64,000 nucleotides of DNA from Nanobdellota archaeon (GTDB lineage Archaea; Nanobdellota; Nanobdellia; Pacearchaeales; GW2011-AR1). Positions within the stretch are counted from its first letter, which is position 1. Every line of letters begins with the position of its first letter. The notes below the pieces were generated by a model. That model had not been told where the DNA came from. It did not search any database and was given only the letters and a program-made list of their open reading frames with translations. Below, in pieces: positions 1 to 37,977 of the stretch. The DNA lies in NCBI GenBank assembly GCA_027334715.1, contig DAHWUG010000001.1:211322-275321 (forward strand), written 5' to 3'. The translations under genes and the position numbers were made by a program.

Positions 1-114
1 CAATAGATCAAAAGAAATCTTGGCTGGAATTAATGAGAATATCACCAAACACATCAGGGAGAAAATCAGCGGTTTTTGATTATTTTTAAGGATTCATGAT
101 TTGCCAATACAAAA

Positions 115-1254
115 ATGGGAACAAATAGGGGAATCAGCAAGGCTAAATCAGTTGTTTGCATATACTGCCATTCAAAAAAAGTAGTAAAGAACGGCCAGAG
201 AAAAGCAAAATTCCAGACAATCCAAAAATACCTGTGCAAGGAATGCAACAGGCACTTTCTTGACACTGAAAAAAGAGTGCCAAACAAAACTTATCCAACG
301 CAGACAATCCTTAGGGCAATTTCTTTTTACAACCTGGGATACAGCCAGCAAAAGGTTTCAAACATTATCTCAAAAAGATACAAAATCAAAGTTCCCCAAA
401 GGACAATAAGTCAGTGGCTCAGCGAATACAGAAATATCTGCACTTTTTATAAGATAAGAAAAGAAGCAACTAATTTTTATTCACCCGATGAAATAATAGA
501 GGATCATGTTCTCATGCATAACAATCTTCCATACAAGTTCCAGATTCATAAGGCAAAATTGCAGATTCTCTGCCAAAGCAAGGTTTACAACAATAAATTC
601 ACAGACAATTCAAAATTTTATCAGCCATTAAAATCTTATTTCGAAAGAATTCCCACAAAAGATTTTCCCAATCATATCTTTAGCCAGCATCATGACCGTG
701 GCCCAAACCAAACTCAAGAAAATAAATCAGATAAAACAAGCAAAGCAGGCGAAATAGGCAGATTAAGCCGCTCTTCTCAGTTAAAATTCAAGACACTTGA
801 CTTTGTAAAGCAGGAGAAATATAATCAGGCAAACAAACTTGCCTATCTGGCTTTAAACTTAGCAAGGAACAATAGGGAAAGGCACCAGTCAATCCAGGAT
901 TTCATGTTAATCAATGATTCAACAACAATCGCAACAGAAATCCCTGTTTATCTTACTAAAGATGACATAGCTTACTTCAAAGACAAGGGGTTTATTTTTA
1001 ATTTTGAAAGCTATCAAACCCCTATTACAGGGCACATTGATTTCCTGCAAGTAAGGAACGGAATAATCCACATTCTTGATTACAAACCTGGCGCAAACAA
1101 AGTAAATGCAGTCAACCAGCTGACAATCTATGCCTTGGCTTTGGCATCGCGGACAAAGCTTGCTGTAAAGGATTTCAAATGCGCATGGTTCGATGAAAAC
1201 AATTGCTATGAATTCTTCCCTTTGCATGTTGTGTACAAGTTAAGGGAAAAATAA
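115..1254 (+). CDS. N-terminal C4 zinc ribbon (CxxC...CxxC) plus HTH, with a C-terminal PD-(D/E)xK-like motif (GHIDF...ILDYK); transposase/nuclease-like
   Basis: CIYCHSKK..CKECNRHF zinc ribbon as in IS1/IS1595-type N-termini; HTH-like segment; C-terminal D...D-Y-K motif. Confidence 0.35.
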   Translation: MGTNRGISKAKSVVCIYCHSKKVVKNGQRKAKFQTIQKYLCKECNRHFLDTEKRVPNKTYPTQTILRAISFYNLGYSQQKVSNIISKRYKIKVPQRTISQWLSEYRNICTFYKIRKEATNFYSPDEIIEDHVLMHNNLPYKFQIHKAKLQILCQSKVYNNKFTDNSKFYQPLKSYFERIPTKDFPNHIFSQHHDRGPNQTQENKSDKTSKAGEIGRLSRSSQLKFKTLDFVKQEKYNQANKLAYLALNLARNNRERHQSIQDFMLINDSTTIATEIPVYLTKDDIAYFKDKGFIFNFESYQTPITGHIDFLQVRNGIIHILDYKPGANKVNAVNQLTIYALALASRTKLAVKDFKCAWFDENNCYEFFPLHVVYKLREK

Positions 1255-1271
1255 CGAAAAATGGATGCGAA

Positions 1272-1316
1272 TTGCCTCCCAGAACGAAACAAAACAGAAA
1301 TTTATCGAGAAGTGAC
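1272..1316. repeat. partial (3' half) copy of the cassette-boundary repeat
   Basis: tgcctcccagaacgaaacaaaacagaaatttatcgagaag aligns with the 3' half of the repeats at 2039, 3277 and 4421. Confidence 0.5.
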
Positions 1317-1402
1317 AGGAAGTGAAAAAACATAAGGAGCAGGATAATACAAGCAGGAAAAGCAAAAGAAAAATTTAAATAGTATCAATTGATATTATTA
1401 AA

Positions 1403-1684
1403 ATGGAAACAGTAAATAAAGGATTTGCAAGATCTCCTACACTTCAAACTGTTTTAATGGTGGAAAAGTTCATCGATGACAATAGCGGGGAATATAAAAA
1501 AACAGATTTATTCAAAAATCTTCCGCGAAAAGTCATGTGGCAGACTTTTCAGGTTATAATAAAATATCTTGAAAACACGCTAAAAATTGCTTATGACAGA
1601 GATGGCTATATTGTCTATATATGGAATCCAGAATTATACTCAAAATATAAAGACAGAAAAGATTTGGAATGGAATCCAAAGTAA
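1403..1684 (+). CDS. putative antitoxin partner, overlapping the downstream RelE/ParE-like toxin gene
   Basis: 93 aa; 16-nt overlap with the downstream toxin-like ORF in operon arrangement. Confidence 0.3.
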   Translation: METVNKGFARSPTLQTVLMVEKFIDDNSGEYKKTDLFKNLPRKVMWQTFQVIIKYLENTLKIAYDRDGYIVYIWNPELYSKYKDRKDLEWNPK

Positions 1685-1989
1685 TTTTTGCAGATACCAA
1701 TTTAAAAGAAGCTTTTGAAATGCTGAAATCAGAGGACAGCAGGCTGTTTAAGGAAATAGAAAATGCACTTAATACAATAAAACAAAATGCTTTCGCTGGA
1801 AGAAATGTTAAAAAAGAAATTATTCCAAGGTCTTTAATCCGGAAATATCAAATAGACAATCTCTGGATTTACAACCTAAGAAAAGATTGGAGATTACTTT
1901 ATACCATAACAAATAATGGGATAGCTGTTTTGGCAATAATTCTTGACTGGATGAATCATAAGGATTATGAGAGATTGTTCAAATTTTAA
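1669..1989 (+). CDS. RelE/ParE-family toxin-like protein
   Basis: C-terminal WRLLY...IAVLAIILDWMNHKDY resembles the RelE/ParE YRIIY...HRKDVY signature. Confidence 0.5.
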   Translation: MESKVIFADTNLKEAFEMLKSEDSRLFKEIENALNTIKQNAFAGRNVKKEIIPRSLIRKYQIDNLWIYNLRKDWRLLYTITNNGIAVLAIILDWMNHKDYERLFKF

Positions 1990-2038
1990 TAGTTTATATC
2001 CTAATTTCTATGAATTTTCCTGCTGATCGCAGACAGGT

Positions 2039-2118
2039 ATGACTGGAGAAACTGGGAAAACACCCTTGTTTCACAGAATGAGACAAAGATGCCTTTGATT
2101 GAGAAGAAATAGGAAAGA
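2039..2118. repeat. cassette-boundary repeat copy R1 (~80 nt)
   Basis: gcagacaggtatgactggagaaactggg...cacagaatgagacaaagatgcctttgattgagaagaa; about 85-90% identical to the copies at 3277 and 4421. Confidence 0.8.
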
Positions 2119-2188
2119 GTAGAGGGAAGACTAAATTAATGCATTAATAGAAAACTTTAAAAAGTATTTCTTATTATAATACATTAAT

Positions 2189-2521
2189 ATGGAAGAGGAA
2201 CTCTTAAAAAATATTGATGAATTTATTGATTCAGGAGATGATAACTTAAAAAAGAGGAGATATAATGCTGCGGTCTCTGATTTCTTTAAGGCAATTGTTG
2301 TCTGCTGTGATTTTATCATCTATAAGAATACAAAAATCCTACCCAAAAACCATAATGACAGATTCTCTTTATTGAAAAAATATTTCCCTGATATTTACAA
2401 GAATGTCTCTAATCTTTTTATTTTGTATACTAAATCTTATAACTTGCGTTTAAACGAAAAAGAAGCCATAAACACGAAAAATTATGCATATGAATTCAGA
2501 AATAAAGTCAATAAAAAATAA
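2189..2521 (+). CDS. HEPN-domain protein (partner of the MNT)
   Basis: YNAAVSDFFKAIVV...PKNHNDRFSLLKKYF is a typical HEPN partner of minimal nucleotidyltransferases; overlaps the next gene. Confidence 0.55.
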   Translation: MEEELLKNIDEFIDSGDDNLKKRRYNAAVSDFFKAIVVCCDFIIYKNTKILPKNHNDRFSLLKKYFPDIYKNVSNLFILYTKSYNLRLNEKEAINTKNYAYEFRNKVNKK

Positions 2522-3023
2522 GCTAAGCAGGATAATAGCAAAAGAGAGTATATTAGATGTTATCTTATTCGGATCTGCAATAAAAGGAAAACCCAACCCC
2601 CATGATATAGACATAGCAATAATAAGTGAAAATGAGGCAGATAGAGATATGCCATGCCCAGATGGATTTCATTTCAGTTTTTTGAAGCCTTTAGATTTTT
2701 TTAGGGAGAGACCCACTATTTTAAACACACTCTTTAGGGAAGGGTATAGCCTTAAATTCAAAAGGCCATTTTCAGAATTATATGGATTCAACAATAAAGC
2801 TCTTTTCTCTTATCAATTAAAAGGATTAAACAGCTCAAAGAAGGTTAAAATTGTAAATATTCTGAGGGGAAAAAAAGGTAAAAAGGGGTTGGTTGCCGAA
2901 AAAAACGGGAATTGGCTGGCTAACCAAATATTTACCGTGCCTATTGGCAATATGAATATTTTTGAAAAATTTTTTTTAAACTTTGAAATTAAATTTATTA
3001 AGTATTATGTATTAATGCATTAA
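2484..3023 (+). CDS. minimal nucleotidyltransferase (MNT)
   Basis: ILFGSAIKGKPNPHDIDIAII matches the GS...DxD NTase motif. Confidence 0.6.
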   Translation: MHMNSEIKSIKNKLSRIIAKESILDVILFGSAIKGKPNPHDIDIAIISENEADRDMPCPDGFHFSFLKPLDFFRERPTILNTLFREGYSLKFKRPFSELYGFNNKALFSYQLKGLNSSKKVKIVNILRGKKGKKGLVAEKNGNWLANQIFTVPIGNMNIFEKFFLNFEIKFIKYYVLMH

Positions 3024-3029
3024 TTTATA

Positions 3030-3281
3030 ATGAACAAAAACAGTAAAAAAACTAATATTTTAATTAGAAAAAAGCTTATTGGCGAAATAAGAAAATCGGG
3101 CATAAAAAGAATTAACCCCCAATCTATTTTTTTCTTGGATTCGTATATATTAAAAAAATTAAATGGAATTTTTAAAATCGCGAAGGATGAGCTTATAATC
3201 CAGGGAAAAGAGACACTAAATCCAAAGGATATAAAGAGAGTTTTAGATGCAGCTAAAAAAGAAGATTCTTTTGAAGTATGA
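3030..3281 (+). CDS. histone-fold (archaeal histone-like) small protein
   Basis: IRKSGIKRINPQS...GKETLNPKDIKRVLD parallels archaeal histone RI.K.AGAERVS...GRKTI..EDI. Confidence 0.4.
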   Translation: MNKNSKKTNILIRKKLIGEIRKSGIKRINPQSIFFLDSYILKKLNGIFKIAKDELIIQGKETLNPKDIKRVLDAAKKEDSFEV

Positions 3282-3348
3282 CTGGAGAAACTGGGAAAAT
3301 ACCCTTGCCTCACAGAATGAGACAAAGATGCCTTTGATTGAGAAGAAG
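3277..3348. repeat. cassette-boundary repeat copy R2
   Basis: begins at the stop codon of the upstream ORF (gtaTGActggagaaactggg...gagaagaag). Confidence 0.8.
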
Positions 3349-3412
3349 TGAGAAGAAAATATTTGTATATTCAATGGGAAAATATATAAACTACAGTTTA
3401 CATATGTAAACT

Positions 3413-3961
3413 ATGGTAAATCTATATAAACAAAAGTTAACAGTTCTTCAGCAGGAGATTTTAAGATTGTTGTTTATAAAAGCAGGAAAATCCCTAAATC
3501 AAAGACAGATTGCAAAAATTCTTGTAGTAACGCCTCCTGCAGTAGTAAAAGCTCTGCCGAAATTAGAGGAAGAAGGATTAATAAAAACTAATCAGGATAA
3601 GGAATCAAAAAGATGGTCTATATCCCTAAATTCAGACAATTATAAAGCAATCCAATTAAAGAGGGCAGATAATTTAAAGCAAGTTTATGAATCTGGACTG
3701 GCTGATTTCCTCCAGGAAAAATTTGCCGGCAGTTCAATCATATTATTCGGAAGCTATTCTAGAGGAGAGGATATTTTTAATTCAGACATAGACCTTGCTG
3801 TTATTGGCAGAACCAATAAAGACGTCGATTTATCAGAGTTCAGCAAAGCCTTAGGAAGGGAAATTTCTATTAATTTTTATGATTCTTTTGGGGAAATACA
3901 TAAAAATTTAAGAGAGAATATATTTAATGGGATTATGCTTTTTGGGGGCATAGAATTATGA
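3413..3961 (+). CDS. wHTH plus nucleotidyltransferase (MNT-type) protein
   Basis: IILFGSYSRGEDIFNSDIDLAVI; N-terminal HTH-like segment. Confidence 0.6.
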   Translation: MVNLYKQKLTVLQQEILRLLFIKAGKSLNQRQIAKILVVTPPAVVKALPKLEEEGLIKTNQDKESKRWSISLNSDNYKAIQLKRADNLKQVYESGLADFLQEKFAGSSIILFGSYSRGEDIFNSDIDLAVIGRTNKDVDLSEFSKALGREISINFYDSFGEIHKNLRENIFNGIMLFGGIEL

Positions 3962-4398
3962 AAATTGAAAAATTTGGCCAGTTTATTGAGGAAGGCATTG
4001 TTAAAAAACAAATTCCTGATAAATCCAGGGCAACATTTCTTATTAAAGAATCTGAAAGGCGGTTAAACTCGTTAAACGAGAAAATTGAGAAAATAAGGAT
4101 AAAAGACGAGAATGCAAATGATTATGTTGAGAATTGTTATGATATTTTGATGGTATTGGTTAGGGCCAAAATGCTAACAGAAGGATACAATGCTTCCGGG
4201 TTTGATGCGCATAAAGCAGAAGTTGCATATCTCACTGTCCTGGGATTTTCAGAGGCAGATATCCAATTTGCAGATCAGATGAGGGTCTTTAGAAATGGGA
4301 TGCTTTATTATGGAAAAAGGCTTGACAAAACTTATGCTGAAAAAACTATTGAATTTACAAAAAAGATTTATGCTGAATTGATGAAAACTTTCAGGTAA
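3958..4398 (+). CDS. HEPN-domain protein
   Basis: 4-nt overlap with the upstream NTase gene; HEPN-like helical protein with a conserved H in ...GFDAHKAEVAYL. Confidence 0.5.
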   Translation: MKIEKFGQFIEEGIVKKQIPDKSRATFLIKESERRLNSLNEKIEKIRIKDENANDYVENCYDILMVLVRAKMLTEGYNASGFDAHKAEVAYLTVLGFSEADIQFADQMRVFRNGMLYYGKRLDKTYAEKTIEFTKKIYAELMKTFR

Positions 4399-4420
4399 AT
4401 GTTATTTTTACAGGCTCACT

Positions 4421-4500
4421 GCAGACAGGTATGACCGGAGAAACTGGGGGAATACCCTTGCCTCACAGAATGAAACAAAAATGACACTTGTAGAAAAAAC
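4421..4500. repeat. cassette-boundary repeat copy R3
   Basis: gcagacaggtatgaccggagaaactggggg...cacagaatgaaacaaaaatgacacttgtagaaaaaac. Confidence 0.8.
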
Positions 4501-4513
4501 TTAAAAGAATAAA

Positions 4514-4795
4514 CTACTGATATTTTTTCTTGTAAATCTTGTCGTGATGTTCAAAATCTGTAAAAAAAACCGTATCACTTTTTTTGTCATATCTAAAAAC
4601 AAGAACAAAGGAACCTATATGCGTTCTCTTATAATCCTTCATATCGTATCTTAAATTTTTATAATGTTCAATATCAGATACCATTAAAATTTCATCCATT
4701 TTCCCGAGAAGGCTTTCAAAAAGGGTCTTATCTTTTCTCTTTAATTTATCAAGAACTCTATCAAAATTTTTACTATTCTTATAAACTCTTGGCAT
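4514..4795 (-). CDS. RelE/ParE-family toxin-like protein
   Basis: RTHIGSFVLVFRYDKKSDTVFFTDFEHHDKIY matches the RelE/YoeB-type C-terminal signature. Confidence 0.5.
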   Translation of the reverse strand: MPRVYKNSKNFDRVLDKLKRKDKTLFESLLGKMDEILMVSDIEHYKNLRYDMKDYKRTHIGSFVLVFRYDKKSDTVFFTDFEHHDKIYKKKYQ

Positions 4796-4797
4796 TT

Positions 4798-5043
4798 TTA
4801 CCTTTTCTCTATTATTGCTCTAAACTCTTCAATAGAATTAAAGGTTCTTCCATATCCTTCTTTCTCAATTTTCTTCAATTTTTCTATATACTCTGGTCTT
4901 AGCTCTGGCTCTAAAAAACTGTCTTCATAAACCTTTGCCAGCATAGCTATCGCCTGAGATTTGTTCTTAAGTCCGAATTTAGCCTTGACTATATTTAAGA
5001 TTCTGTCCTCATTTTCCCCAAGGTCAATTATGCTTTGTACCAT
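4798..5043 (-). CDS. putative antitoxin, upstream partner of the RelE-like toxin
   Basis: 81 aa ORF ending 3 nt before the toxin gene start. Confidence 0.4.
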   Translation of the reverse strand: MVQSIIDLGENEDRILNIVKAKFGLKNKSQAIAMLAKVYEDSFLEPELRPEYIEKLKKIEKEGYGRTFNSIEEFRAIIEKR

Positions 5044-5173
5044 TTTATTATGAAATATAATGAATTATAATGCTTATAAACTTTTTTATCCACCCTCTAT
5101 TTTATTACTCCCTTATAAGTGACAACAGCCACAAGGTTTAAATAGCCAGATTTTTATACTCAAATATATTAAA

Positions 5174-6889
5174 ATGGCGATGAAAAAAGGATTTTCAGGA
5201 AGAATAAGAAAAGGAATTGCAGCAGCTGCGCTTGGCCTTTCTGTATTAACCGGATATGCATGCAATAATGGTACCGAGCCAAAATACCCACCTGTCGCAA
5301 GCCTTTCTGCTTTCCCTTTATCAGGAATTTCTCCATTGGCAGACACTGTAAAATACAGCTGTGTAAGTCCAAGCAACAATCTGAGAAGCTCAACTTTGTA
5401 CAATAATGGAAATGTTGCTTCAACAAAAACATCGCTTGACACAGTAATAAATTTAACACAGAACGCTTCTTTTAGCTTAAAATGCATAGATAATGATGGA
5501 AAAACAGACAGTATAGGTCCTATAAGTGTCCAGGTTTTGCAACCATCAATTTCACAAACACTTTCCCTTCAAAATTACATTGACCTGCAATCAAATGTAA
5601 ACCTGCAAAACATTTCACAAGCAACAAGAAAAATAACAAAGAATGGAACAGCAATTGATTCTCTTACAAAAACAATAACAGGACCAAACTATCAGCAGAC
5701 TTTAAGCAAGATGCCTTCTGGCCAATATTGCTCTATTGTTGAAGCAGCCAATGTTAAGCCAGATACTGCATGCACAGATGTCCCTGTTTATGCCCCAATT
5801 GTCTACACTGGCAATGTCCAAAACATCTACACAGATGATTCAATAGAAGTTACAATAGACAGTGTTGTAAGCAGAAATCCTGAGGCAAATCCTGTTGCAA
5901 TAACAGGAGTAACGGATTTAGACAGCATTGTGCGCGCGAGCATGAATGGGAACCAGATGAAGATTTTATCTGGAGATTCTCTTGGAAATTATTCAATAGG
6001 AATAAACACAACAACAGCAACAGGAGCAACAAACCAATTTGTCTTCAACGGCAAGATAAGCCCTGACATTGTTGCTTTTTCAAGCATAATTCCCGGTCCA
6101 TGTGATAGTGCAGGAGTATGCCAACCACCTACTGAAGGCGATCAGGTTTATATAGACTCATTGAACGGGTCACCATCAATAAAACTTACTAACGGGATTC
6201 AAAATATTGTGCCTGCTTGGTCGCCTGATGGGACTAAGTTAGCGTATTTCTCTTCCGGAGGAGGTTTATTCTCTGTTTATACTATGAATTCAGATGGGAG
6301 TAGCCAAACAAGATTAGTCCAAACTAATCTTAATACAATGTACCCTTCCTGGTCGCCTGATGGGAAGAAAATTGTTTTTTCTTACACTGATTATTCGACA
6401 AAATCAGGCGATGGAGTAGTTAATACCAACGGAACAGGATTTTTGTCTTTATATGAAGAACCTTACAATGGTTCAGAACCATCATGCTTATTCTTCTCTC
6501 CTGACGGGACAAAAATCGCATTCGAGACATCTTATGGGCAAATAGACATAATGAATCAAGATGGGACAAATATAACTCAATTTACAAGTACTGGGTCGAA
6601 TGGAGGACCTAGATGGCTTCCAGATGGTTCGGGGTTGCTATTCATGTCAAACAGAGACAATCCAAATTTTGATATCTATAAAAAAACATTGACTGGAATT
6701 GTTACAAGATTGACAACAAATGTCGGAGCCATTGACCCAGATATTTTGCAGAATGGGAAAAAGATAATTTATGCTAAGATGGGGAGCTCGCAATTTTACA
6801 TAATAAATGCAGATGGAAGCGGGCCTGTCCAGACAGTTACTGTTCCAGGGCTGGCAAGATTCCCAACTTTCAGGCCAAGAATAAGATAA
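5174..6889 (+). CDS. secreted TolB-like beta-propeller repeat protein
   Basis: N-terminal signal and lipobox-like GYAC; repeated WSPDGTK(L/I)AF and SWSPDGKKIVF blades. Confidence 0.55.
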   Translation: MAMKKGFSGRIRKGIAAAALGLSVLTGYACNNGTEPKYPPVASLSAFPLSGISPLADTVKYSCVSPSNNLRSSTLYNNGNVASTKTSLDTVINLTQNASFSLKCIDNDGKTDSIGPISVQVLQPSISQTLSLQNYIDLQSNVNLQNISQATRKITKNGTAIDSLTKTITGPNYQQTLSKMPSGQYCSIVEAANVKPDTACTDVPVYAPIVYTGNVQNIYTDDSIEVTIDSVVSRNPEANPVAITGVTDLDSIVRASMNGNQMKILSGDSLGNYSIGINTTTATGATNQFVFNGKISPDIVAFSSIIPGPCDSAGVCQPPTEGDQVYIDSLNGSPSIKLTNGIQNIVPAWSPDGTKLAYFSSGGGLFSVYTMNSDGSSQTRLVQTNLNTMYPSWSPDGKKIVFSYTDYSTKSGDGVVNTNGTGFLSLYEEPYNGSEPSCLFFSPDGTKIAFETSYGQIDIMNQDGTNITQFTSTGSNGGPRWLPDGSGLLFMSNRDNPNFDIYKKTLTGIVTRLTTNVGAIDPDILQNGKKIIYAKMGSSQFYIINADGSGPVQTVTVPGLARFPTFRPRIR

Positions 6890-7162
6890 TTTTTTTAGCA
6901 CAGTCTTGTATTCCAAGCTGAACCCAGATTAATTAAAATAAACAATTACAGCATATTACAAATTTTATAATAGATTTTGTTATAAAAAGTATACAATTGT
7001 TTACTGAAAACTCCTTTGGTTTAACAACAAAACAAAATTTATAAATAACAAAACCCTAAAGACTTGATGAAAAAGAGTTGGGTGGAAAGGCAAAATAAAA
7101 TAGAAATAAATGATGCACAAATGGCTGTGTTTATTTTGACAGGTATCCGAGTCTGATCCACG

Positions 7163-7176
7163 GCTGGGCGCCCAGC
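7163..7176. other. perfect 14-bp GC-rich palindrome GCTGGGCGCCCAGC upstream of the pilin-like gene
   Basis: self-complementary 14-mer in an AT-rich intergenic region, ~35 nt before the 7210 ORF. Confidence 0.3.
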
Positions 7177-7209
7177 GCTTAAAATTAAAAATATGCAATA
7201 ACTTTAATA

Positions 7210-8952
7210 ATGATGAAAAAAGAGGGCAGGAAAAGTAAAGTTAGATTTATTTCTATAAACAAATCAGGAGACATTATTCTATCAAAAAAAGGGCTTTCAG
7301 AGATTGTTGCTACATTGATAATAATTCTCGTAACTTTGGTTGCTGTAGGAATTATCTGGGCAGTCATCAGCAACGTCATAAATTCAGGTACACAGCAGAT
7401 TGCATTAAACCAGTATAATGTTGACTTACAGATAACAAAGGCGCAAGTTTCTCCTGACAATACAAGCCTGCTAGTCTATGTGAAAAATGCAGGCCAGGGA
7501 GACTTTACAGGGATGGATTTTGTCTTCAATAACAGAACGAGCTCCCAAGTAATAAGGGTTAACTCAACGATAGTTCCTTTGCAGGAAAAAAGCTTCAGTT
7601 TCACATTTTCTGATATAAATATCACAAACCTGCAGACGATTTCAGTAGCTCCTTTTACAAAGATAAATTCTGGTCCGGGAACAGTTGGAGCAACAACAAG
7701 CACATTTGACATATCAAAGATTGTTGCGGCAGTTGTGACAGGTGGTCCGCTATTTCAAAAAGAGACTAGTTTTGAGAAAGGAGGCTTTTCAGGAGTTCAG
7801 TTAATAAGCTATTCTGTTTCCAGCGGATCAAACGGATTGCCAGTTTATCCTGAATTCAAAAATGCAACAGTAGATCCGCTTGATGTTTCTCCAGGCCAAA
7901 ACCAGACATACATTACAGTTGTTTATTCTCCTTACAATGTTACAAATGTTACTTCATTTACAGAACTGGACCACAGCAACCTTTCATTGACTTTCATAAA
8001 AATAGCAGATAACAATGCAGGAACATCAGTATGGTCTGTGAATTGGACAGCAAATGACACGCATCAGACAACATACTTGACATGGATTACTGCTGTAGAT
8101 TCTGCAGGAAACAAAAACAAACTTTCTCTTGGCTGGGCAGATACTGTTGATTGTGCTGGTTTGATCCCAATGACCGCAACAGGACCTTATGTAATAACTC
8201 AATCCTGTACCCTTACTACTAATGAAGTCGCGGGATTATCTTCTGGAACATTAACAATAGGCTCAGCAACAGGTCCAGTTACAGTTACTTTAAATTCTGG
8301 AACAAATCTTCTTACTGCAGGAGGGTTCAGCTTTTATAACTCTTCTTCTTCTTTGCAATTAGTCCAAACAGGAACACTCCCTTCAATTCATCCATCAGGC
8401 TACTTGTATTATTATGACACAGATGGCGATGGCTTTGCGAACAATGCAACAATGGTCTACAGCACAACTGCCCTTGGGGCAGGGTATACTTTAGCTACAA
8501 ATATTTTGGCAACTTCTGACTGCGACAACAACTTTTATTCAACTACATTGGGGGGCTGCGGGCTGTATAATGGAGTACACTCAGAAAGTCAGTGCACAAG
8601 CGCTGGAGGAACATTTTACACTAATGGTTTATCAGCTCCTAAAACAATAGGAGACTGCAAATTTTCAGGCAGCTCATGTCTTGGCGGCTGGACTGCTAAT
8701 GGGGATACTGCAACAAGTGCTAATACGTTCCTAGGAGTAGTTAGTCTTTCAAACCCATTTGCAAAAACAATAAGCGGGCCTCTTAATCTTGCATGCGCTT
8801 GCACTTCATGTACAACAGGAAGCCATGCTTTCCCAGGTTCTGGACAGGAAACATGCACATACCTGAATTGTAATCCTACTAATACCTGTCCTGCTCCTTC
8901 TCCTTCTTCTGGTACATGTTATGCTACTATTTCATATGTTGGATGTTATTAA
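7210..8952 (+). CDS. surface protein with an archaeal class-III (type IV pilin-like) signal peptide and a Cys-rich C-terminus
   Basis: KGLSEIVATLIIILVTLVAVGIIW hydrophobic N-terminus typical of archaeal pilin/flagellin-like prepilins. Confidence 0.5.
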   Translation: MMKKEGRKSKVRFISINKSGDIILSKKGLSEIVATLIIILVTLVAVGIIWAVISNVINSGTQQIALNQYNVDLQITKAQVSPDNTSLLVYVKNAGQGDFTGMDFVFNNRTSSQVIRVNSTIVPLQEKSFSFTFSDINITNLQTISVAPFTKINSGPGTVGATTSTFDISKIVAAVVTGGPLFQKETSFEKGGFSGVQLISYSVSSGSNGLPVYPEFKNATVDPLDVSPGQNQTYITVVYSPYNVTNVTSFTELDHSNLSLTFIKIADNNAGTSVWSVNWTANDTHQTTYLTWITAVDSAGNKNKLSLGWADTVDCAGLIPMTATGPYVITQSCTLTTNEVAGLSSGTLTIGSATGPVTVTLNSGTNLLTAGGFSFYNSSSSLQLVQTGTLPSIHPSGYLYYYDTDGDGFANNATMVYSTTALGAGYTLATNILATSDCDNNFYSTTLGGCGLYNGVHSESQCTSAGGTFYTNGLSAPKTIGDCKFSGSSCLGGWTANGDTATSANTFLGVVSLSNPFAKTISGPLNLACACTSCTTGSHAFPGSGQETCTYLNCNPTNTCPAPSPSSGTCYATISYVGCY

Positions 8953-15054: not shown

Positions 15055-15382
15055 AAAAAAGAGGCTTTCTTTTAATGCAAGGAAATGCGGAATGTTTGGC
15101 CAATTTTGGGGTCTGATGTTTTCCCGTAGGGAAAAAGCTGAAAATCTCCTTTTTGAATTTAGGAAGCCGGTAAGTTTCAGCATTCACTCTGTGTTTGTTT
15201 TCTTCCCTTTTGTTGCTGTCTGGCTTGATGAAAAAGGCAATGTTACCAAAATAAAGATTATAAAACCATTTACTCTGTCTGTCAAACCAAAAAGAAAATA
15301 CAAAAAGCTGCTGGAAATACCAATAAACAGGAAGAACAGGAAAAAATTGCAGTCTCTTTCCCGTAACTTTCCTCAATATTAA
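15026..15382 (+). CDS. DUF192-family protein
   Basis: GFHYKKK...GLMFSRREK...VWLDEKGNVTKI pattern. Confidence 0.4.
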   Translation: MQAKVGFHYKKKRLSFNARKCGMFGQFWGLMFSRREKAENLLFEFRKPVSFSIHSVFVFFPFVAVWLDEKGNVTKIKIIKPFTLSVKPKRKYKKLLEIPINRKNRKKLQSLSRNFPQY

Positions 15383-15463
15383 CTAACAAACTTCTTTCGT
15401 AAAGTTCCTCTGCTCGTAACTTTCCTCAATATTAACTAACAAACTTCTTTCGTAAAGTTCCTC
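15361..15463. repeat. tandem direct repeat, 2 x ~50 nt (ccgtaactttcctcaatattaactaacaaacttctttcgtaaagttcctc)
   Basis: two near-identical units separated by tgct; unit 1 includes the stop codon of the upstream ORF. Confidence 0.75.
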
Positions 15464-18679: not shown

Positions 18680-21600
18680 ATGGAAGAAAAAAAAGAAAGG
18701 AATGAATATACTGCATCTGAAATAAAAGTGCTTGAAGGCCTTGAAGGAGTAAGAAAAAGGCCTGCAATGTACATAGGCTCGACAGGAAAAGACGGCTTGC
18801 ATCATCTGGTTTATGAAGTTGTTGACAATTCTGTTGATGAAGCACTTGCCGGTTACTGTAAAAAGATAAAAGTCACGATAAACAAAGACGGCTCTGTCAC
18901 AGTCGATGATGATGGAAGAGGAATTCCAGTTGACATGCATCCTATCCTGAAGATTCCTGCTGTTGAAGTTGCATTAACAAAACTTCATGCAGGGGGAAAA
19001 TTTGACAAAAAAGCATATGTTATCTCAGGAGGTTTACATGGGGTTGGTGTAAGCGTCGTGAATGCCCTTTCAAAGAAGCTGATTGTTGAAGTAAAGCGAG
19101 ATGGAAGAGTATATACACAGGAATATTCAAAGGGAATAACAAAAACAAAACTAAAAGAGGGGGCAAAGGCAGAAGGAACAGGAACAACAGTAACTTTCTG
19201 GCCTGACGAGGAAATATTTTCAACAGTTGTTTTTGATTACAAGGTTCTTGAAAACAGATTCAGAGAAATAACCTTCCTTAATCCTGGCCTGAAAATACTT
19301 CTTGAAGATGAAAAGAGCGGAAAGAAAGAGGAATTTTATTCTTCAGGAGGGCTGATTGAGTTTGTAAAATGGCTAAACAAATCAAAAGAAGCCCTTCATA
19401 AGCCAATTTACTTCAAAAAAGAAGTTGACCACAGCGTAATAGAGGCTGCAATACAGTACAACAGCAGTTACCAGGAAAATATTTTCGGTTTTGTCAATAC
19501 AATAAACACAATTGAGGGAGGAACTCATGTTTCTGGCTTCAAGACAGCACTGACAAGGGTAATTAATGATTATGCAAAGAGCAAAGAGCTTCTTAAGGGA
19601 GAATCCTTGCAAGGAGATGATGTGAGAGAAGGCCTTACAGTTATAATCAGCCTAAAAATGCAGGAACCTCAGTTTGAAGGCCAGACAAAGACAAAATTGG
19701 GAAACTCGGAGATGAAAGGGTTTGTTGATTCTGCAACAACGCAAGCTCTGAGTGAATTTTTTGAGGAAAATCCAGGAATTGCAAGAATAATAACTGCAAA
19801 GGCGCTTGATTCTGCAAAGGCAAGGCTTGCTGCAAAAAAGGCAAAAGACCTCGTAAGAAGAAAAAATGCTTTTTCACTCGGAGGTTTGCCCGGAAAACTT
19901 GCTGATTGCTCTTCAAGAAAAACAGAAGACACTGAAATTTACATTGTAGAAGGGGAAAGCGCTGGAGGATGTTTTTCTATGAATACAGAAGTTGCGCTGG
20001 CTGATGGGAGAGATTTGTCTTTCAAAGAATTAGTTGAAGAACACCAACAGGGTAAAACAAATTTTTGCTATACTATAAACAAAAATGGAAGCATTGGAAT
20101 CGAGAAAATAGAAAATCCGAGAATAACTAAATCAAATGCAGAGGTTATTAAAGTCATTCTTGACAATAACCAAGAAATAATCTGCACTTTAGATCATAAA
20201 TTTATGCTTAGGGATGGAACTTATAAAGAAGCGAAACTTTTAACGCGGAATGATTCTCTTATGCCATTAAACAAGAAAATATCTAAAGTTGGCGGGAGAA
20301 TTACAATAGAAGGTTATGAAATGGTCTGGGATCCAAAGAGAAAATGGATATTTACACATATGCTTGCTGATGAGTACAATTTAAGGAACTATATTTATAC
20401 TAATAAACAGAATGAGGTTAGGCACCATATAGACTTCAATAAAAGGAACAATAATCCACGTAATATAACAAGATTAAACAAAGAACAGCACCTTCTTTTG
20501 CATACAGAACATCTAGACAGGACATTACATCGGCAAGATGTTAAAGAGAAAGCCAGACAAGCTCACAGAAATCCTGAATACAGAAAAAGAGTTAGCGATT
20601 GGGCAAAACAACCAGAGATTAAGAAGATGATGTCTGAAAGATCAAGAAAACTATGGGAAAATCCAGAATATAAAAGGAATATAATGGAAAAATATATAAA
20701 ATTTTATAATTCTAACGGAAAATATAGAGAAAATTTAAAAAAGAGATTTTATCAGCAACAGAAGGAATACTGGCTAAATTTAGAGAATAAGAAAAAAGCC
20801 TCAGAAAAACTTAAAAAATTCTTTGAGAAAAATCCAGATACTAAAGAATACCTTTCTAATCTGGCTAAAGAGCAATGGAAAGATGAGTTTCTTTTACTTT
20901 GGAGAAGACAAAAAACTAAAGAGCAATGGACTCCAGAATTTAGAAAAAAAAGAAAAGATTCATATAATCAAACTTATTACAGAAAAACAATAAGTTTAAT
21001 GAAGAGTATTGCTGAACGAGAAGGTAGCTTGAATAACTTTGATAATGTTAGGATTCAAGGCAGAGATAAATCTATACTCAGCCTAAAGGAATTTCAAAAA
21101 AGATTCTTTAATAGAGATAAAGAAGAAATGCTTGAGACTGTTAAAAATTATAATCATAAGATCAAGAGAATTGAGAGATTAACAGAGAGAATTGACGTTT
21201 ATGATATTGAAGTCCCAAACACCCATAATTTTGCCTTGGCTTCAGGTGTTTTTGTCCATAACAGTGCGAAAATGGCAAGAAACAAGGAAATTCAAGCTAT
21301 TCTTCCATTAAAGGGAAAAATCCTCAACGTCGAGAAATCAAGCCCTGTGCGCTCATTGTCAAGCGAGGAAATTGCGAACTTAATAACTGCAATAGGAACA
21401 GGAGTTGGGGAAAATTTCAATGTTGAAAACCTTAGATACAATAAAATAATAATAATGTCTGATGCAGATGTTGATGGGGAGCACATAAAAACGCTTTTGC
21501 TTACTCTTTTCTACAGATTCATGCCGCAGCTGATAGAAAGCTCGCACATTTATGTTGCCCTTCCTCCATTGTACAGGGTAAGAAAGGGGCAGAAAGACCA

Positions 21601-21865
21601 GTATGTTTATACCGATGAAGAACTTAAGAAAGAGGTCAGCAATGTTGATTCAAACAATGTCACAAGATTCAAAGGACTTGGAGAAATGAGCTCTACCCAG
21701 CTATGGGATACGACAATGAATCCAAAAACGAGAAAAATAAAAAAGATTTTCATAGAAGATGCTGTCGAGGCAGACAGCGTTTTCACAATGCTTATGGGAG
21801 ATGACGTGCAGGCAAGAAAGCTTTTCATCCAGGAAAATGCAAAAGAAGCTAATCTTGACATATAA
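18680..21865 (+). CDS. gyrB: DNA gyrase subunit B, containing an intein
   Basis: GyrB ATPase and TOPRIM motifs (LHHLVYEVVDNSVDEA; IVEGESAGG / SAKMARNKEIQAILPLKGKILNVEK) interrupted by a ~431-aa insertion. Confidence 0.9.
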   Translation: MEEKKERNEYTASEIKVLEGLEGVRKRPAMYIGSTGKDGLHHLVYEVVDNSVDEALAGYCKKIKVTINKDGSVTVDDDGRGIPVDMHPILKIPAVEVALTKLHAGGKFDKKAYVISGGLHGVGVSVVNALSKKLIVEVKRDGRVYTQEYSKGITKTKLKEGAKAEGTGTTVTFWPDEEIFSTVVFDYKVLENRFREITFLNPGLKILLEDEKSGKKEEFYSSGGLIEFVKWLNKSKEALHKPIYFKKEVDHSVIEAAIQYNSSYQENIFGFVNTINTIEGGTHVSGFKTALTRVINDYAKSKELLKGESLQGDDVREGLTVIISLKMQEPQFEGQTKTKLGNSEMKGFVDSATTQALSEFFEENPGIARIITAKALDSAKARLAAKKAKDLVRRKNAFSLGGLPGKLADCSSRKTEDTEIYIVEGESAGGCFSMNTEVALADGRDLSFKELVEEHQQGKTNFCYTINKNGSIGIEKIENPRITKSNAEVIKVILDNNQEIICTLDHKFMLRDGTYKEAKLLTRNDSLMPLNKKISKVGGRITIEGYEMVWDPKRKWIFTHMLADEYNLRNYIYTNKQNEVRHHIDFNKRNNNPRNITRLNKEQHLLLHTEHLDRTLHRQDVKEKARQAHRNPEYRKRVSDWAKQPEIKKMMSERSRKLWENPEYKRNIMEKYIKFYNSNGKYRENLKKRFYQQQKEYWLNLENKKKASEKLKKFFEKNPDTKEYLSNLAKEQWKDEFLLLWRRQKTKEQWTPEFRKKRKDSYNQTYYRKTISLMKSIAEREGSLNNFDNVRIQGRDKSILSLKEFQKRFFNRDKEEMLETVKNYNHKIKRIERLTERIDVYDIEVPNTHNFALASGVFVHNSAKMARNKEIQAILPLKGKILNVEKSSPVRSLSSEEIANLITAIGTGVGENFNVENLRYNKIIIMSDADVDGEHIKTLLLTLFYRFMPQLIESSHIYVALPPLYRVRKGQKDQYVYTDEELKKEVSNVDSNNVTRFKGLGEMSSTQLWDTTMNPKTRKIKKIFIEDAVEADSVFTMLMGDDVQARKLFIQENAKEANLDI
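19970..21262 (+). mobile_element. GyrB intein (Cys1 ... His-Asn / Ser+1) with an HNH-like region
   Basis: insertion begins CFSMNTEV right after GESAGG and ends FVHN before SAKMAR; internal HHIDFNKRNNNPRNITRLNKEQH resembles HNH. Confidence 0.75.
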
Positions 21866-30156: not shown

Positions 30157-31211
30157 ATGGGTCGGGAGATTTTATGGAGTCCGTCCAGGATTGATGCTGC
30201 AAACTACTGCCGTATGAGGTATTATCTAAAATATATAGAGCACAATCAAGGCCTTCAACTGTCTGCATTTCTTAAAGGTGGTCTCTTGCATGAATTGATA
30301 GAAAATTTTTGGAATAGGCTTAATGTCAAATATTCAGATGCCGGGGAATTTGCAAAGTATGCACAAGGGAAATGGCAGCAGCAGTGCATAAGGTCAGAGC
30401 ATTCAGACAGGCCTGTTGTATGGAAATATCCCGAGGAAAGATGGGTTATAAAAAAAGATCTTGAGGGCATATGTGAAACACTATTCCCTATTTTTATGGA
30501 AGAGGGAAAGCCGATATATTCAGAACTTGGATTTACCATAAGAATCGGGGAAAAACATTTACAGGCAGAATAGACGATATAAGAAGAAGACTAGTTGAAG
30601 GAATCAAAAAAATTATAATAAGGGATTACAAATCAGGAAGACCCTCCATAGGCGAGATGAAACTGAATTTTGACCCGCAGCCAACAATTTACAACGCGGC
30701 ATTAAATGGGATGATGTCTGAGAGTGATGAAGTTGCAAGAGCCCTTGGTTTTGATGGAAGGGTAATAAATGCAGATGGTTCATTCATAAACCATGATTTT
30801 GTACAGGAATATTTCATGCTTGAAGCTGAAAATTTTGTCAGGAAAAAGGAAAGTGAAGGCAAGAAAGTGGTAATGCCTTATCTTAGGGAAGCAAGAAGGA
30901 CAGATGAACATTTTTACGAAGTAATCAGAATGATAGAAGGAACAGAAAAAGCTGTTGCTACAGGCAATATTTATGCTGAAAGAGGGAGAAAATGCGATGA
31001 CTGCGACATGAAAAATGCGTGCGCTGCAAAACTTATGAAATCATGGGAAGGACCGTTTTCTGTCAAGGGTCAAATGACTTTTGATTTTGCAATTCCCAGA
31101 TTCGCAAAAACAGAAACAAAATCGCAAAAAGAAAAAACACAGAAAAAAATAATATTCAGAAAGAAAAAGCCAGAAATTGTTGCCCCCAATCCGCTTTTTC
31201 CTTCCTCTTGA
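30157..31211 (+). pseudogene. Cas4/RecB-like PD-(D/E)xK nuclease with a C-terminal Cys cluster, split by a -1 frameshift at the G4A5 run (30547-30555)
   Basis: frame 1 ends ...GEKHLQAE*; the overlapping frame continues FTGRIDDIRRRLVEGIKKIIIRDYKSGRP (motif II/III) then ...CDDCDMKNACAAKL. Confidence 0.6.
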
Positions 31212-35061: not shown

Positions 35062-35364
35062 TTAGTAATCCTGTATTTCTTCTTCGCTAGGCTCATCTGA
35101 CAAGGTTTTCTGCCCTGCAGGCATTTTGCCTTCTTCTTTTGCAGGCTCTGCCTTTAGGTCTTCCTCAGAAATGGAATCTATCATTTCCTTGAACTTTGGG
35201 AAATCTGCAGCGCCAATCTTAACTCCTGATTTTGTGAAGCCGGTGTATCTTTCAGATGTTACAAATTCCCTTATTGTCACTCCAGGACGGCCTCCAAAGT
35301 CATCGAGCCTTATGATTATGTCTGTCGTGTCGTTCTTTTTTATCTTTCCCAGGTCTTTTTCCAT
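35062..35364 (-). CDS. PC4-like transcriptional coactivator / ssDNA-binding protein
   Basis: IIIRLDDFGGRPGVTIREFVTSERYTGFTKSGVKI parallels the PC4 core. Confidence 0.45.
   Translation of the reverse strand: MEKDLGKIKKNDTTDIIIRLDDFGGRPGVTIREFVTSERYTGFTKSGVKIGAADFPKFKEMIDSISEEDLKAEPAKEEGKMPAGQKTLSDEPSEEEIQDY
35238..35280. repeat. 43-bp direct repeat, copy 1 (inside the PC4-like CDS)
   Basis: agccggtgtatctttcagatgttacaaattcccttattgtcac, identical to 36469-36511. Confidence 0.9.
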
Positions 35365-35469: not shown

Positions 35470-36345
35470 CTATAAACCAATTTTCATTAAAATTACACCA
35501 ACTATCATAATAACACTACCTATTATTGTTTCAGTCTTAGGTTTATCTTTGAAGAAAATAAAACTAAATAACAAAACAAATAATATTTGAGTTTTGAAAA
35601 TTGTTGAAACAACTCCAATGCTTCCGCCGCCTGTAGCAGAAAAGGCTAAAATTGTTGAAATAGCATTAAGAACCCCTAAAATAATAAATAGTTTTTTGTT
35701 ATCAAATATTTGTTTTGTAAAGTTTTCGTTTCTTAGATAGAGAATTGGCAATAGTCCGATTATAATCAGAATATTCTCAGCCAGAAGAACAAAAGTAGTA
35801 TTCTGAGGAATAGTGTTATTGATTGCGAGCTTGTCAAATGCTATTACGACGCTGCCAGCTAAAACAGATAATATCATTAGTTTTGACGCTTTATTTTTAA
35901 AAAGCAGTTTTATAGGTTTAAGTAAACCTTCTTTAGCACTACTAACATTTAAAGTATACACTCCAAACAATGTTATAAAAATACCAATTATTGCGAGAAA
36001 CCCTGGCTTCTCATTGAGGGGCGGAAGAAAAGCAACCAATAATGTAAATATTGAACCGAGAGATATAAGTGGATAAATTGCTGATAAATCGGCAATTTTC
36101 ATTGCTTTGAACTGAACAATCTGTGAAACAGTGTAAAAGAGAACGGAACCAACAATTCCAGTAATAAATAATAGGTTTAAACTCGGAATGCCTTCTTTGA
36201 TAGCAATCACTACAATAATTGGCGTTGCTAAAACTAATGTGCACCAGGTTAAAACTAAGGGGCTAACACCCTTTAGTATTCTTTTGTTTAAGATTACAGA
36301 AATAGCAAATATTACAGCTGTTATAATTGCTATATAAAACCACAT
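35470..36345 (-). CDS. EamA/DMT-family transporter
   Basis: ~10 TM helices in two repeated halves. Confidence 0.55.
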   Translation of the reverse strand: MWFYIAIITAVIFAISVILNKRILKGVSPLVLTWCTLVLATPIIVVIAIKEGIPSLNLLFITGIVGSVLFYTVSQIVQFKAMKIADLSAIYPLISLGSIFTLLVAFLPPLNEKPGFLAIIGIFITLFGVYTLNVSSAKEGLLKPIKLLFKNKASKLMILSVLAGSVVIAFDKLAINNTIPQNTTFVLLAENILIIIGLLPILYLRNENFTKQIFDNKKLFIILGVLNAISTILAFSATGGGSIGVVSTIFKTQILFVLLFSFIFFKDKPKTETIIGSVIMIVGVILMKIGL

Positions 36346-36468
36346 ATTTATTTAAAATCATTGAATGTATATAAATATATTTTCCTCTCTTATTTCTTGT
36401 AAAGTTGAATGTTGTACAGACTAACTCGAATATTGTGCAGAATTCTCAAGATTATTTATATTGTGCAA

Positions 36469-36511
36469 AGCCGGTGTATCTTTCAGATGTTACAAATTCC
36501 CTTATTGTCAC
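36469..36511. repeat. 43-bp direct repeat, copy 2
   Basis: exact copy of 35238-35280. Confidence 0.9.
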
Positions 36512-36736
36512 GCCCGAAGATGAAGAATTTATAAATAAATTTCCTGTGGATAATTAATGAATAACACAATTAAACTGCTTTATTCATTGCTCATTGGATT
36601 TGTTGCAGTAGTGATAGCGAAATTTGTCCATCCAGTCTGGAGTTTAATTCACCTGCTTATATTTGGCTTAGTAGTATTCGCTGTAACATTCATATTGACT
36701 TTATTAATAAAAAGGAAAAGAGCGAAAAAATAAGCT

Positions 36737-37101: not shown

Positions 37102-37142
37102 AAACGAAATCGCCACAACCAAAACCCTATAAAAAGTAATAC
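37102..37142. repeat. 41-bp direct repeat, copy 1
   Basis: aaacgaaatcgccacaaccaaaaccctataaaaagtaatac; one mismatch to 37937-37977. Confidence 0.85.
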
Positions 37143-37936: not shown

Positions 37937-37977
37937 AAACGAAATCGCCACAACTAAAACCCTATAAAAAGTAATAC
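37937..37977. repeat. 41-bp direct repeat, copy 2, immediately 3' of tRNA-Ser
   Basis: aaacgaaatcgccacaactaaaaccctataaaaagtaatac. Confidence 0.85.

Follow-up and report, generated by a model that had tools for sequence, protein, structure and literature searches.

The left end of a 64,000-nt stretch of DNA from a Nanobdellota archaeon (assembly GCA_027334715.1, contig DAHWUG010000001.1, positions 211,322 to 275,321; hereafter the window) carries a string of small toxin-antitoxin (TA) and defence-type gene cassettes punctuated by copies of a short repeat. The nature of this repeat, and the way in which the array may have formed, are the subject of this analysis. The array extends beyond the window. 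Contig ena:ERZ27233565:k141_1685274 (L011), found by exact-sequence lookup of the open reading frame (ORF) at 115-1254, here called ORF1, differs from the window by 12 mismatches in 11,254 overlapping nt (99.9% identity). It reaches 1,894 nt further left, with window position 1 at L011 position 1895. Read from left to right, the joined sequence contains a predicted surface-protein gene, here called the parent gene, whose functional 3' end (Rp) lies outside the window; a spacer of ~280 nt; a gene pair encoding a winged helix-turn-helix (wHTH)-MNT protein and a HEPN protein; ORF1; repeat copy R0; cassette 1; R1; cassette 2; R2; cassette 3; R3; an inverted pair of YafQ-like and DUF2683 genes; a PD40/Tricorn-like gene; and a gene for a 580-aa pilin-like protein. 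Cassettes 1-3 point the same way and the last pair is inverted.

A repeat scan of window positions 1-8000 found a three-copy plus-strand family at 2037-2115, 3276-3354 (92% identical to the first) and 4429-4507 (73%), to which a 40-nt sub-family adds a copy at 1272-1311. The 22-nt core of the repeat, with up to three mismatches allowed, occurs at only three places in the 64 kb, all on the plus strand, and its chance expectation is 0.00 (100 dinucleotide-preserving shuffles). No further copies were found in the window by a whole-window repeat scan and an 18-nt core scan. Boundaries refined by codon alignment place four copies of the parent 3' end on the plus strand. R0 (1271-1315; IASQNETKQKFIEK, stop TGA) is the shortest and most divergent, and is one codon shorter than the others. 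R1 (2029-2112; ADRYDWRNWENTLVSQNETKMPLIEKK, stop TAG) is 93% identical to the parent copy over 84 nt, and decayed homology possibly continues leftward to ~2016. R2 occupies 3277-3351 (YDWRNWENTLASQNETKMPLIEKK, stop TGA), and R3, the longest copy in the window, 4409-4504 (YRLTADRYDRRNWGNTLASQNETKMTLVEKT, stop TAA). A preliminary description of this DNA had placed all four copies to within a few bases, and the ORF layout that it gave is present. Its figure of 85-90% identity fits R1 and R2, which are 92% identical, but not R3 (77-79% to R1 and R2) or R0 (64-73%).

The left ends of R0, R1, R2 and R3 vary, giving lengths of 45, 84 (possibly 97), 75 and 96 nt. Similarity between copies ends at the stop codon in every fragment, and the right end is flush with the stop (+0-2 nt) in all 10 copies across the loci described here. 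Upstream of the stop, the fragments measure 44-96 nt inside the window and 12-213 nt over all loci examined. R2 does begin at the stop codon of the upstream ORF, as had been noticed earlier: ORF 3030-3281 closes with a TGA (3279-3281) that R2 includes, and whose context GTA TGA C is read as TAT GAC in R2's own frame. Copies scattered without relation to gene boundaries, which the preliminary description had considered, were not found; all four window copies belong to one locus and one strand.

The four window copies share a common reading frame, with the stop at the same aligned position (TGA, TAG, TGA and TAA). We aligned eight copies by codon, namely Rp, R0-R3 and three from the strain variants L042 and L044 described below. 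The aligned copies contain no internal stops, and their sole indel is one codon (3 nt). Minimum substitutions by codon position are 12/14/28 (third-position excess, p=0.004), and codon-state changes comprise 24 synonymous versus 19 replacement changes. Two serine codons swap between the TCN and AGY families (TCT to AGT and TCA to AGC in L042). The four window copies have no consistent start codon, which argues that the repeats are not small genes. The coding-type substitution pattern implies that the fragments diverged mostly as functional gene ends, or else track the functional copy by gene conversion. The repeat is thus almost certainly the 3' end, that is the last 15-42 codons including the stop, of the upstream surface-protein gene.

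The parent gene occupies L011 2-667 and is cut by the contig start, leaving its last 221 codons visible. Its stop lies 1,228 nt left of window position 1. Its C-terminal end, given at differing lengths, reads ...YRLTADRYDWRNWENTLVSQNETKMPLIEKS, ...GEVSYRLTADRYDWRNWENTLVSQNETKMPLIEKS or ...TLTIHGTAPGEVSYRLTADRYDWRNWENTLVSQNETKMPLIEKS up to the stop. The parent protein has 44 homologues at E≤1e-3, with 35-64% identity; the few that are named by source come from bacteria of the candidate phyla radiation (CPR), and the majority are unnamed metagenome proteins. No Pfam family was found for the protein or its homologues, and no member of the family was found in viruses. The homologues have a common C-terminal domain up to ...GEVSYRLTANRFD..W.N (SYRLTANRFD..W.N), followed by a short basic tail. 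The N-terminal part gives a weak PHROG tail-fibre match and contains NG.(I/V)GI.TT.P ‘collar’ motifs, and the parent is, by these features, a predicted tail-fibre-like surface protein. The SQNETK-type tail occurs in all fragments and is absent from 19 other family members that were aligned. A 64-aa concatenate of the repeat translations shares three 5-mers with no protein among 5.8 billion clusters, because the parent is known solely as a cut gene at a contig end.

Comparison with other strains and genomes revealed how the region differs among lineages. Contig L036 comes from a different sample of the ERZ272... series. In it, 264 nt separate the parent homologue P0005 from a PD40/Tricorn gene and a 532-aa gene, which are syntenic (tblastx) with window 5174-6889 and 7210-8952. 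By this gene order L036 represents an empty site, from which it follows that the ~6.4 kb between the parent stop and the PD40 gene is accreted. In L042, a 1,694-nt contig from the same sample as L011, cassette 2 (85% nucleotide identity) has other neighbours on its left: a cassette of two genes (131 aa and 203 aa), then a 129-nt fragment (TIHGTQVGEVSYRLTANKYDWTNWGNTLASQNETKMPLVEKS and stop) whose first base is the last base of the 203-aa gene's stop codon. In L044, a contig from SRR22388092, a fragment tail is followed by cassette 3 (89%), a 48-nt fragment (IASQNDTKMPLTEKM and stop) and cassette 1 (83%), so that the order is 3 then 1, versus 1, 2, 3 in the window. The pattern recurs in a second, independent genome, the Nanoarchaeota metagenome-assembled genome (MAG) GCA_038045405.1 (L045). 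Here the parent homologue (57-69% amino acid identity) precedes a MazE-PIN pair, an ORF1 homologue (62%), a cassette-2 homologue (tblastx) and a 213-nt copy of the parent end. This copy represents the 3' end of L045's own parent gene, 3.5 kb downstream of it, and ends 2 nt past the TAA; over a core of ~197 nt it differs from that end at a single, synonymous position. Beyond the copy lie further TA pairs, the gene for a 688-aa surface protein and a homologue of cassette 3. In L058, the parent homologue (64%) has 24 nt behind it, then 12 nt that echo its end (GAGAAGAAATAG), then a block that is also conserved in L011 and L045. No fragments were found behind the parent-family members in the CPR contig L037 and in L039.

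The differing order and neighbours of the cassettes in L042, L044 and L045 support the view that they behave as exchangeable units. Over all loci, the left boundaries of the identity block lie at 12, 44-48, 75, 84-97, 96, 129 and ~200 nt, and the junction between cassette 2 and its fragment differs between the window and L045 lineages. Fragments are closer to each other within a genome than to their positional orthologues (R1-Rp 93% and R1-R2 92%, versus R1-L042R 75%). Several copies are mosaic: Rp equals R1 on the left, R1 is like R2 at the right end, and AAT..GCC is common to R2 and R3. Together, the mosaic copies and the within-genome likeness indicate that gene conversion or crossovers have probably taken place among the fragments.

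ORF1 (115-1254, plus strand, 379 aa) lies between the functional gene end Rp and R0. It is predicted to fuse a Zn-ribbon and HTH N-terminus of the insertion sequence (IS) type IS1/IS1595 to a PD-(D/E)XK nuclease of the Cas4/RecB type. The NCBIfam model IS1_IS1595_Zn scores 33.7 bits (cut-off 28), the region resembling the IS1-transposase N-terminal HTH spans aa 15-106, and Pfam PDDEXK_1 scores 24 bits (cut-off 22); PADLOC reports a Cas4-like nuclease. An AlphaFold model (pLDDT 81) gives weak matches to Cas4 and RecB/AddA nuclease domains, the best being 4r5q (probability 0.99, E 9e-3), and a sequence search against the PDB returned nothing. A homologue search gave >3,000 hits, of which the best 120 are 46-63% identical and nearly all full-length; the named relatives among the matches are Nanoarchaeota and Woesearchaeota. 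All 29 aligned homologues keep the Zn cysteines and the D...DYK...Q..Y motif unchanged. ORF1 is single-copy in the window. Homologues also lie at L045 1806-2954, L046 6001-7143 and L048 6001-7149. The L046 homologue stands behind a 1,370-aa Big_9 protein, and one identical ORF1 homologue has a constant context in 10 samples (L048-L057), with an 845-aa collar-motif protein before it and HicAB following. No duplicated gene end was found at L046 and L048-L057. In all four contexts ORF1 follows a large protein gene, mostly a recognizable surface protein, and a TA pair is adjacent in three of the four. From these contexts, ORF1 could be either a resident neighbour or a nuclease that initiates insertion. 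The simple reading of ORF1 as an active IS transposase was rejected, given its single copy, the lack of room for terminal repeats (35- and 17-nt spacers) and the constant context in 10 samples.

A block of ~50 nt is also conserved downstream of the parent gene in three lineages (L011 ~760-800, L045 ~960-1010, L058 ~2830-2880). It reads ...TTCAGC..TTT.TGTCA....GCCAGCAAAATCTGTCAG..., and a CAGCACTTTCTGTCAG motif occurs twice in L011. This block may have a regulatory function or be bound by a protein, of which ORF1 is one conceivable candidate.

We propose that the array probably arose by serial recombinational insertion and displacement at the 3' end of the parent gene, with a probability of roughly 0.6. 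DNA from a related strain, consisting of a gene 3' end and a downstream cassette, would recombine into the resident gene end. If circular, this DNA could enter through one homologous crossover; a linear piece could enter by homology-facilitated illegitimate recombination, being anchored by homology within the gene and joined illegitimately at its far side. The newly arrived 3' end would then be the functional one, and the former 3' end would be shunted downstream together with the cassette behind it. The resulting direct repeats would then permit gene conversion, loop-out and re-insertion, reshuffling cassette order between strains. TA cargo would be addictive, so that events or deletions losing a resident cassette would be counter-selected and the array would grow by accretion. 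Old gene ends would persist as scars directly before the promoter of the next cassette. Four cassette junctions carry a parent fragment that runs from a variable left point exactly to the stop. A remnant flush with the stop would be retained because the second joint could fall only within the stretch from the crossover to the promoter in front of the resident, addictive cassette.

Several observations weigh against this proposal. It is drawn entirely from comparative anatomy, and neither a circular nor a linear intermediate was observed. The 10 of 10 stop-flush right ends are accounted for solely by selection, which does not explain how a cassette was first placed flush. One left boundary is common to R0 and the short L044 fragment, which have different upstream neighbours, and cassette 3 stops at the same point in two strains, although the fragments after it differ in length. 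Neither a Campbell model nor one with an anchor plus an illegitimate joint predicts this recurring left boundary or the constant end of cassette 3. R0, although nearest to the functional gene, is the most divergent copy, so that insertion was not simply sequential at the gene end. In addition, the conserved downstream block stands behind the functional gene in L011, L045 and L058, and ORF1 is a stable syntenic neighbour elsewhere, though its segment lies here between two fragment copies. The innermost ‘cassette’ may thus be resident rather than incoming.

Other explanations were weighed against serial displacement. The preliminary description had spoken of an integron-like or MITE-like cassette array, and small TA-rich, defence-type cassettes in one orientation, punctuated by a homologous repeat, are indeed present; integrons and clusters of attC sites lacking integrases (CALINs) also exist in Archaea, DPANN included (PMC9668308). 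In that reading the repeats would be attC sites recombined by an integron integrase. The doubt about attC in the preliminary description was justified. An attC site is an imperfect palindrome (R''-L''...L'-R') whose single-stranded DNA fold, unlike its sequence, is conserved. No conserved imperfect hairpin emerged on folding, RNAalifold giving only a 9-pair local hairpin in one half of the repeat with 0 compensatory changes. Single-stranded DNA folds of both strands of three copies give differing structures, and those of R2 (z=-1.7/-1.6) and R3 (z=-0.1/-0.2) are no better than shuffles. R''/R' cores are missing, both by the earlier check and in the sequence itself. We scanned the cassette ORFs, the 1.9 kb upstream and the other non-housekeeping window ORFs (obvious housekeeping ORFs having been identified by eye), and found no IntI, tyrosine recombinase (PF00589), resolvase or DDE transposase among the window ORFs examined or in L011 1-1894. 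The earlier statement that no tyrosine recombinase lies inside the window is borne out for the ORFs examined, and the integrase that it suggested seeking left of position 1 was not found in those 1.9 kb. With a repeat that is demonstrably the coding 3' end of a gene, the integron or CALIN reading is refuted on those of its defining features that could be tested, and we give it next to no weight. Equally little credit can be given to a miniature inverted-repeat transposable element (MITE), a conserved 3' untranslated region (3'-UTR) or a small RNA (sRNA) element, which had also been put forward, or to a terminator. A short conserved element does sit at cassette 3' ends, and R1 alone folds better than shuffles (z -3.3). 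However, at the gathering score an Rfam 15 covariance-model scan of the window matched only a tRNA-Ser (37979-38059) and no family at the repeat, there is no common structure or covariation, and the substitutions follow codon structure. The copy ends show neither terminal inverted repeats nor inverted-repeat arms, no target-site duplications were found, and the copies are confined to one locus and one strand. The degenerate 21-mer TCACARAAYGARACAAARATG matched 10 genome, 0 viral and 24 metagenome contigs, all by chance and with no flanking similarity; no dispersed copies are thus present in the window or in the public collections scanned. Two further candidates were rejected. In a polymorphic-toxin reading the fragment would be the pre-toxin region; the fragments here run through the stop codon and have no toxin tip behind them. 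A reverse-transcription-like origin was discarded since the fixed end is the stop codon, not a transcript end, and no reverse transcriptase was seen at the locus.

Three alternatives accept that the repeat is a gene end and differ in how it was multiplied. Islands that target tRNA or tmRNA genes and restore their 3' end typically show direct repeats whose limit coincides exactly with the end of the gene. The cassettes could accordingly be small integrative elements, each with an att site overlapping the parent 3' end and carrying a replacement end, with an integrase supplied in trans. Such tandem site-specific integration would explain repeats ending at the gene end, the common orientation of the cassettes between fragments and the recurrence of one left boundary in two strains (R0 and L044b). 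We consider it unlikely, given that the scan above detected no integrase, resolvase or DDE transposase, that left boundaries range from 12 to ~200 nt, and that junctions to the same cassette differ by lineage, as seen for cassette 2 in the window and L045. Moreover, two unrelated window loci with unrelated sequences bear the same signature. At one, a BtpA-family gene (37161-37877, minus strand; Pfam 66 bits) lies between 41-nt direct repeats (98%) at 37102-37142 and 37937-37977, one of which starts 1-2 nt past the 3' end of the tRNA-Ser(GGA) gene (37979-38059, minus strand). The 41-nt repeat holds a TATA-like TTTTTATAGG, and therefore the inserted gene and the next gene each have the same putative promoter. 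At the other, a 55-nt direct repeat (93%; two of the four differences synonymous) occurs at 35229-35283 and 36460-36514. One copy encodes aa 28-45 of a 100-aa ORF (35062-35364, minus strand), and upstream of an inserted 291-aa ORF with multiple predicted transmembrane segments (35470-36345, minus strand) the other forms an in-frame fragment. Since in both a gene fragment or flank is duplicated across an inserted gene, they favour a general, homology-driven process over a dedicated site-specific system. An equally improbable alternative is a homing-like process in which ORF1 would bind and cut near the surface-gene end, with repair from a cassette template, by homology on one side and by end joining on the other, inserting DNA and leaving a duplicated gene end. 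Both window/L011 and L045 have ORF1 between the functional gene end and the first fragment, none of the 29 aligned homologues departs from its nuclease and Zn motifs, its N-terminus matches transposase DNA-binding domains above the curated cut-off, and it stands behind a large protein gene in four contexts (with collar-type motifs or Big_9 where checkable), TA pairs being adjacent in three. Set against this are its single copy and resident-like context in 10 samples, the lack of a duplicated gene end in those loci or L046, the absence of ORF1 from L036, and the failure to find a cleavage-site motif at the variable left boundaries. Less probable still is the erosion of tandem paralogues, in which full-length surface genes interleaved with TA cassettes would have been deleted down to the last 45-213 nt of each. 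It would account for coding-type divergence and stop-flush right ends with no insertion mechanism. L036 has three tandem genes with the collar motif, and junctions to the same cassette differ by lineage, as independent deletions would have it. But at least four independent deletions would be needed, each within ~130 nt of the stop and abutting the last gene of the preceding cassette. The C-terminal domain occurs in one of the three L036 genes, fragments 91-99.5% identical to the resident gene end are unlike old paralogues, and the differing cassette orders in near-identical strains are left unexplained.

Serial displacement of gene ends is known from bacteria. For rhs loci it has been described as C-terminal displacement: a piece of DNA acquired laterally, perhaps as a circle, is proposed to recombine homologously with the gene, so that the former 3' end and the genes behind it are pushed downstream (Jackson et al., 2009; PMC2935791). 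Rhs arrays likewise consist of an intact gene followed by a same-strand string of dissociated fragments of its own 3' end with the formerly trailing genes (PMC2935791). The fragments there are, as here, of the same clade as the intact gene, and strain differences reveal displacement, as do L042, L044 and L036. In contrast to Rhs, the displaced tip here is the conserved last 15-42 codons (64-93% nucleotide identity), not a variable toxin domain; the passengers are free-standing TA and defence cassettes with apparent promoters of their own, not immunity genes; and the host is a DPANN archaeon with a tail-fibre-like surface gene that lacks YD repeats. By this comparison the process at the locus appears to be analogous to Rhs displacement, and the locus is not, as judged from its genes, a polymorphic-toxin locus. 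In the Vibrio cholerae type VI secretion system (T6SS), sequential effector displacement leaves orphan immunity genes and shifted effector 3' ends, and homology-facilitated illegitimate recombination has been proposed (Kirchberger et al., 2017; PMC5361080). As is proposed here, those arrays grow behind a conserved anchor by repeated insertion of modules, with old modules and 3' ends shifted back, and the keeping of old genes is explained by the cost of losing them (PMC5361080). The retained T6SS genes guard against the toxins of neighbours, whereas here a cassette would be retained because its own toxin kills cells that lose it (post-segregational killing); displacement in the T6SS exchanges the effector, whereas here the protein product is essentially the same. 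Integrons as described for Archaea are defined by IntI and folded attC sites (PMC9668308). Chromosomal integrons and archaeal CALINs resemble this array in their small, same-orientation, TA-rich cassettes, which are punctuated by a repeat and differ in order by strain, and TA cassettes are thought to stabilize chromosomal integron arrays (PMC9668308). The present array differs in having no IntI, attI or folded attC and a repeat that is a variable-length coding fragment of a host gene, and, as read by eye, a TATA-like promoter seems to belong to each of its cassettes, whereas those of integrons are mostly promoterless. Further likenesses come from mobile islands. Genomic islands and satellites can lie in tandem at the 3' end of a tRNA, tmRNA or protein gene, following integrase sublocation rules, and tycheposon islands carry partial-tRNA repeats. 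As here, the target 3' end forms direct repeats between the inserts, and the incoming DNA restores a functional end. The differences are that the present array has no integrase in or near it, that the 5' limits of the identity block vary, and that the inserts are 0.7-2.5 kb with one to three genes.

The process is therefore a known one, found here with a new host group, DPANN, and a new cargo, TA cassettes. The earlier reading as an archaeal integron, MITE or sRNA is replaced by one that can be tested. Displacement accretion, so far described for bacterial polymorphic-toxin loci, would operate in DPANN on a non-toxin surface gene. The array would also provide an example of addiction modules that build and stabilize a variable island with no dedicated recombinase. 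In-frame, stop-flush copies of the end of an upstream gene offer a diagnostic for such islands in fragmented MAGs. The ORF1 family represents a large and strongly conserved DPANN family, with an IS1-type DNA-binding domain and a Cas4/RecB-like nuclease (both predicted), beside large protein genes. A more speculative idea, which we regard as doubtful, is that the locus constitutes a DPANN analogue of the integron that is independent of a recombinase or assisted by the ORF1 nuclease. The surface-gene 3' end would then serve as a homology landing pad that captures, stockpiles, homogenizes and reshuffles TA and defence cassettes, and the fragments would be kept for this exchange rather than as mere scars.

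The genes of the array are as follows. The innermost pair consists of an MNT gene (wHTH-MNT, L011 946-1503; NTP_transf_2, E 7.5e-7), between the parent and ORF1, and a 157-aa HEPN gene (L011 1500-1973, plus strand; Pfam HEPN, E 6.8e-7), which lies mostly left of the window, with its 3' end at 1-79. Cassette 1 (1403-1989, plus strand) comprises a 93-aa ORF (1403-1684) that overlaps a 106-aa YoeB/ParE-like ORF (1669-1989), with weak matches below curated cut-offs. Cassette 2 (2189-3281, plus strand) contains a 110-aa ORF (2189-2521), a 179-aa MNT nucleotidyltransferase (2484-3023) and an 83-aa ORF (3030-3281). Cassette 3 (3413-4398, plus strand) contains a 182-aa MarR-type wHTH-MNT protein (3413-3961) and a 146-aa partner (3958-4398), and matches the PADLOC candidate system PDC-M05 (component A, 60 bits, E 5.8e-17; component B, E 2.7e-4). 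The inverted pair (4514-5043, minus strand) encodes a 93-aa YafQ-like toxin (4514-4795; TIGR00053, 59.8 bits, below its cut-off) and an 81-aa DUF2683 protein (4798-5043; 38 bits, cut-off 27), and no repeat copy follows it. The PD40/Tricorn-like gene (5174-6889, plus strand, 571 aa, assigned by Pfam) forms the right-hand syntenic anchor of the inserted region. A TATA-like box lies ~25-35 nt before the first ATG of each cassette, as read by eye.

MNT domains score above cut-off, and HEPN does so solely for the 157-aa L011 protein. No family was found for the 110-aa, 93-aa (1403-1684) and 83-aa ORFs, and direct comparison of the 146-aa ORF with the Pfam-supported L011 HEPN protein revealed no similarity. 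The module labels of the preliminary description are thus retained in part. The 106-aa ORF is weakly YoeB/ParE-like, the 179-aa and 182-aa proteins are MNT, the second with a wHTH, and the 93-aa minus-strand ORF is YafQ-like; no family match supports calling the 110-aa ORF a HEPN protein or the 83-aa ORF a histone-fold protein. The spacer after R0 (window 1320-1352) weakly resembles the junction in cassette 2 where the ORF labelled HEPN stops and the MNT gene starts (2505-2541; local score 34, shuffle p ~0.013), and the orthologous L044 spacer does not contain this resemblance. The segment may be a remnant of a deleted cassette.

Several features elsewhere were also recorded. A second PD-(D/E)XK ORF lies at window 30157-30573 (138 aa; PDDEXK_1, 35 bits) and is followed by a 184-aa ORF of no family (30657-31211); the pair could be a split or two-part Cas4-like nuclease. 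In another DPANN population, a MITE-like polymorphism follows the HicA gene near the ORF1 homologue: a 152-nt insertion (L048 ~7675-7830) with terminal inverted repeats (AGATACTGTTAAGATAA...TTATCTTAAC...GGTATCT), flanked by CTCTAAAA, is absent in some samples (L049 ~4270). The 1,061-aa GyrB ORF at window 18680-21865 contains an apparent intein (CFS... to ...VHNS) with an endonuclease-like insert, judged by eye. A perfect tandem duplication of 69 nt (window 45491-45628) lies inside ORF 45387-45926, and a perfect 49-nt repeat occurs at window 15362-15410 and 15415-15463, with copies 53 nt apart.

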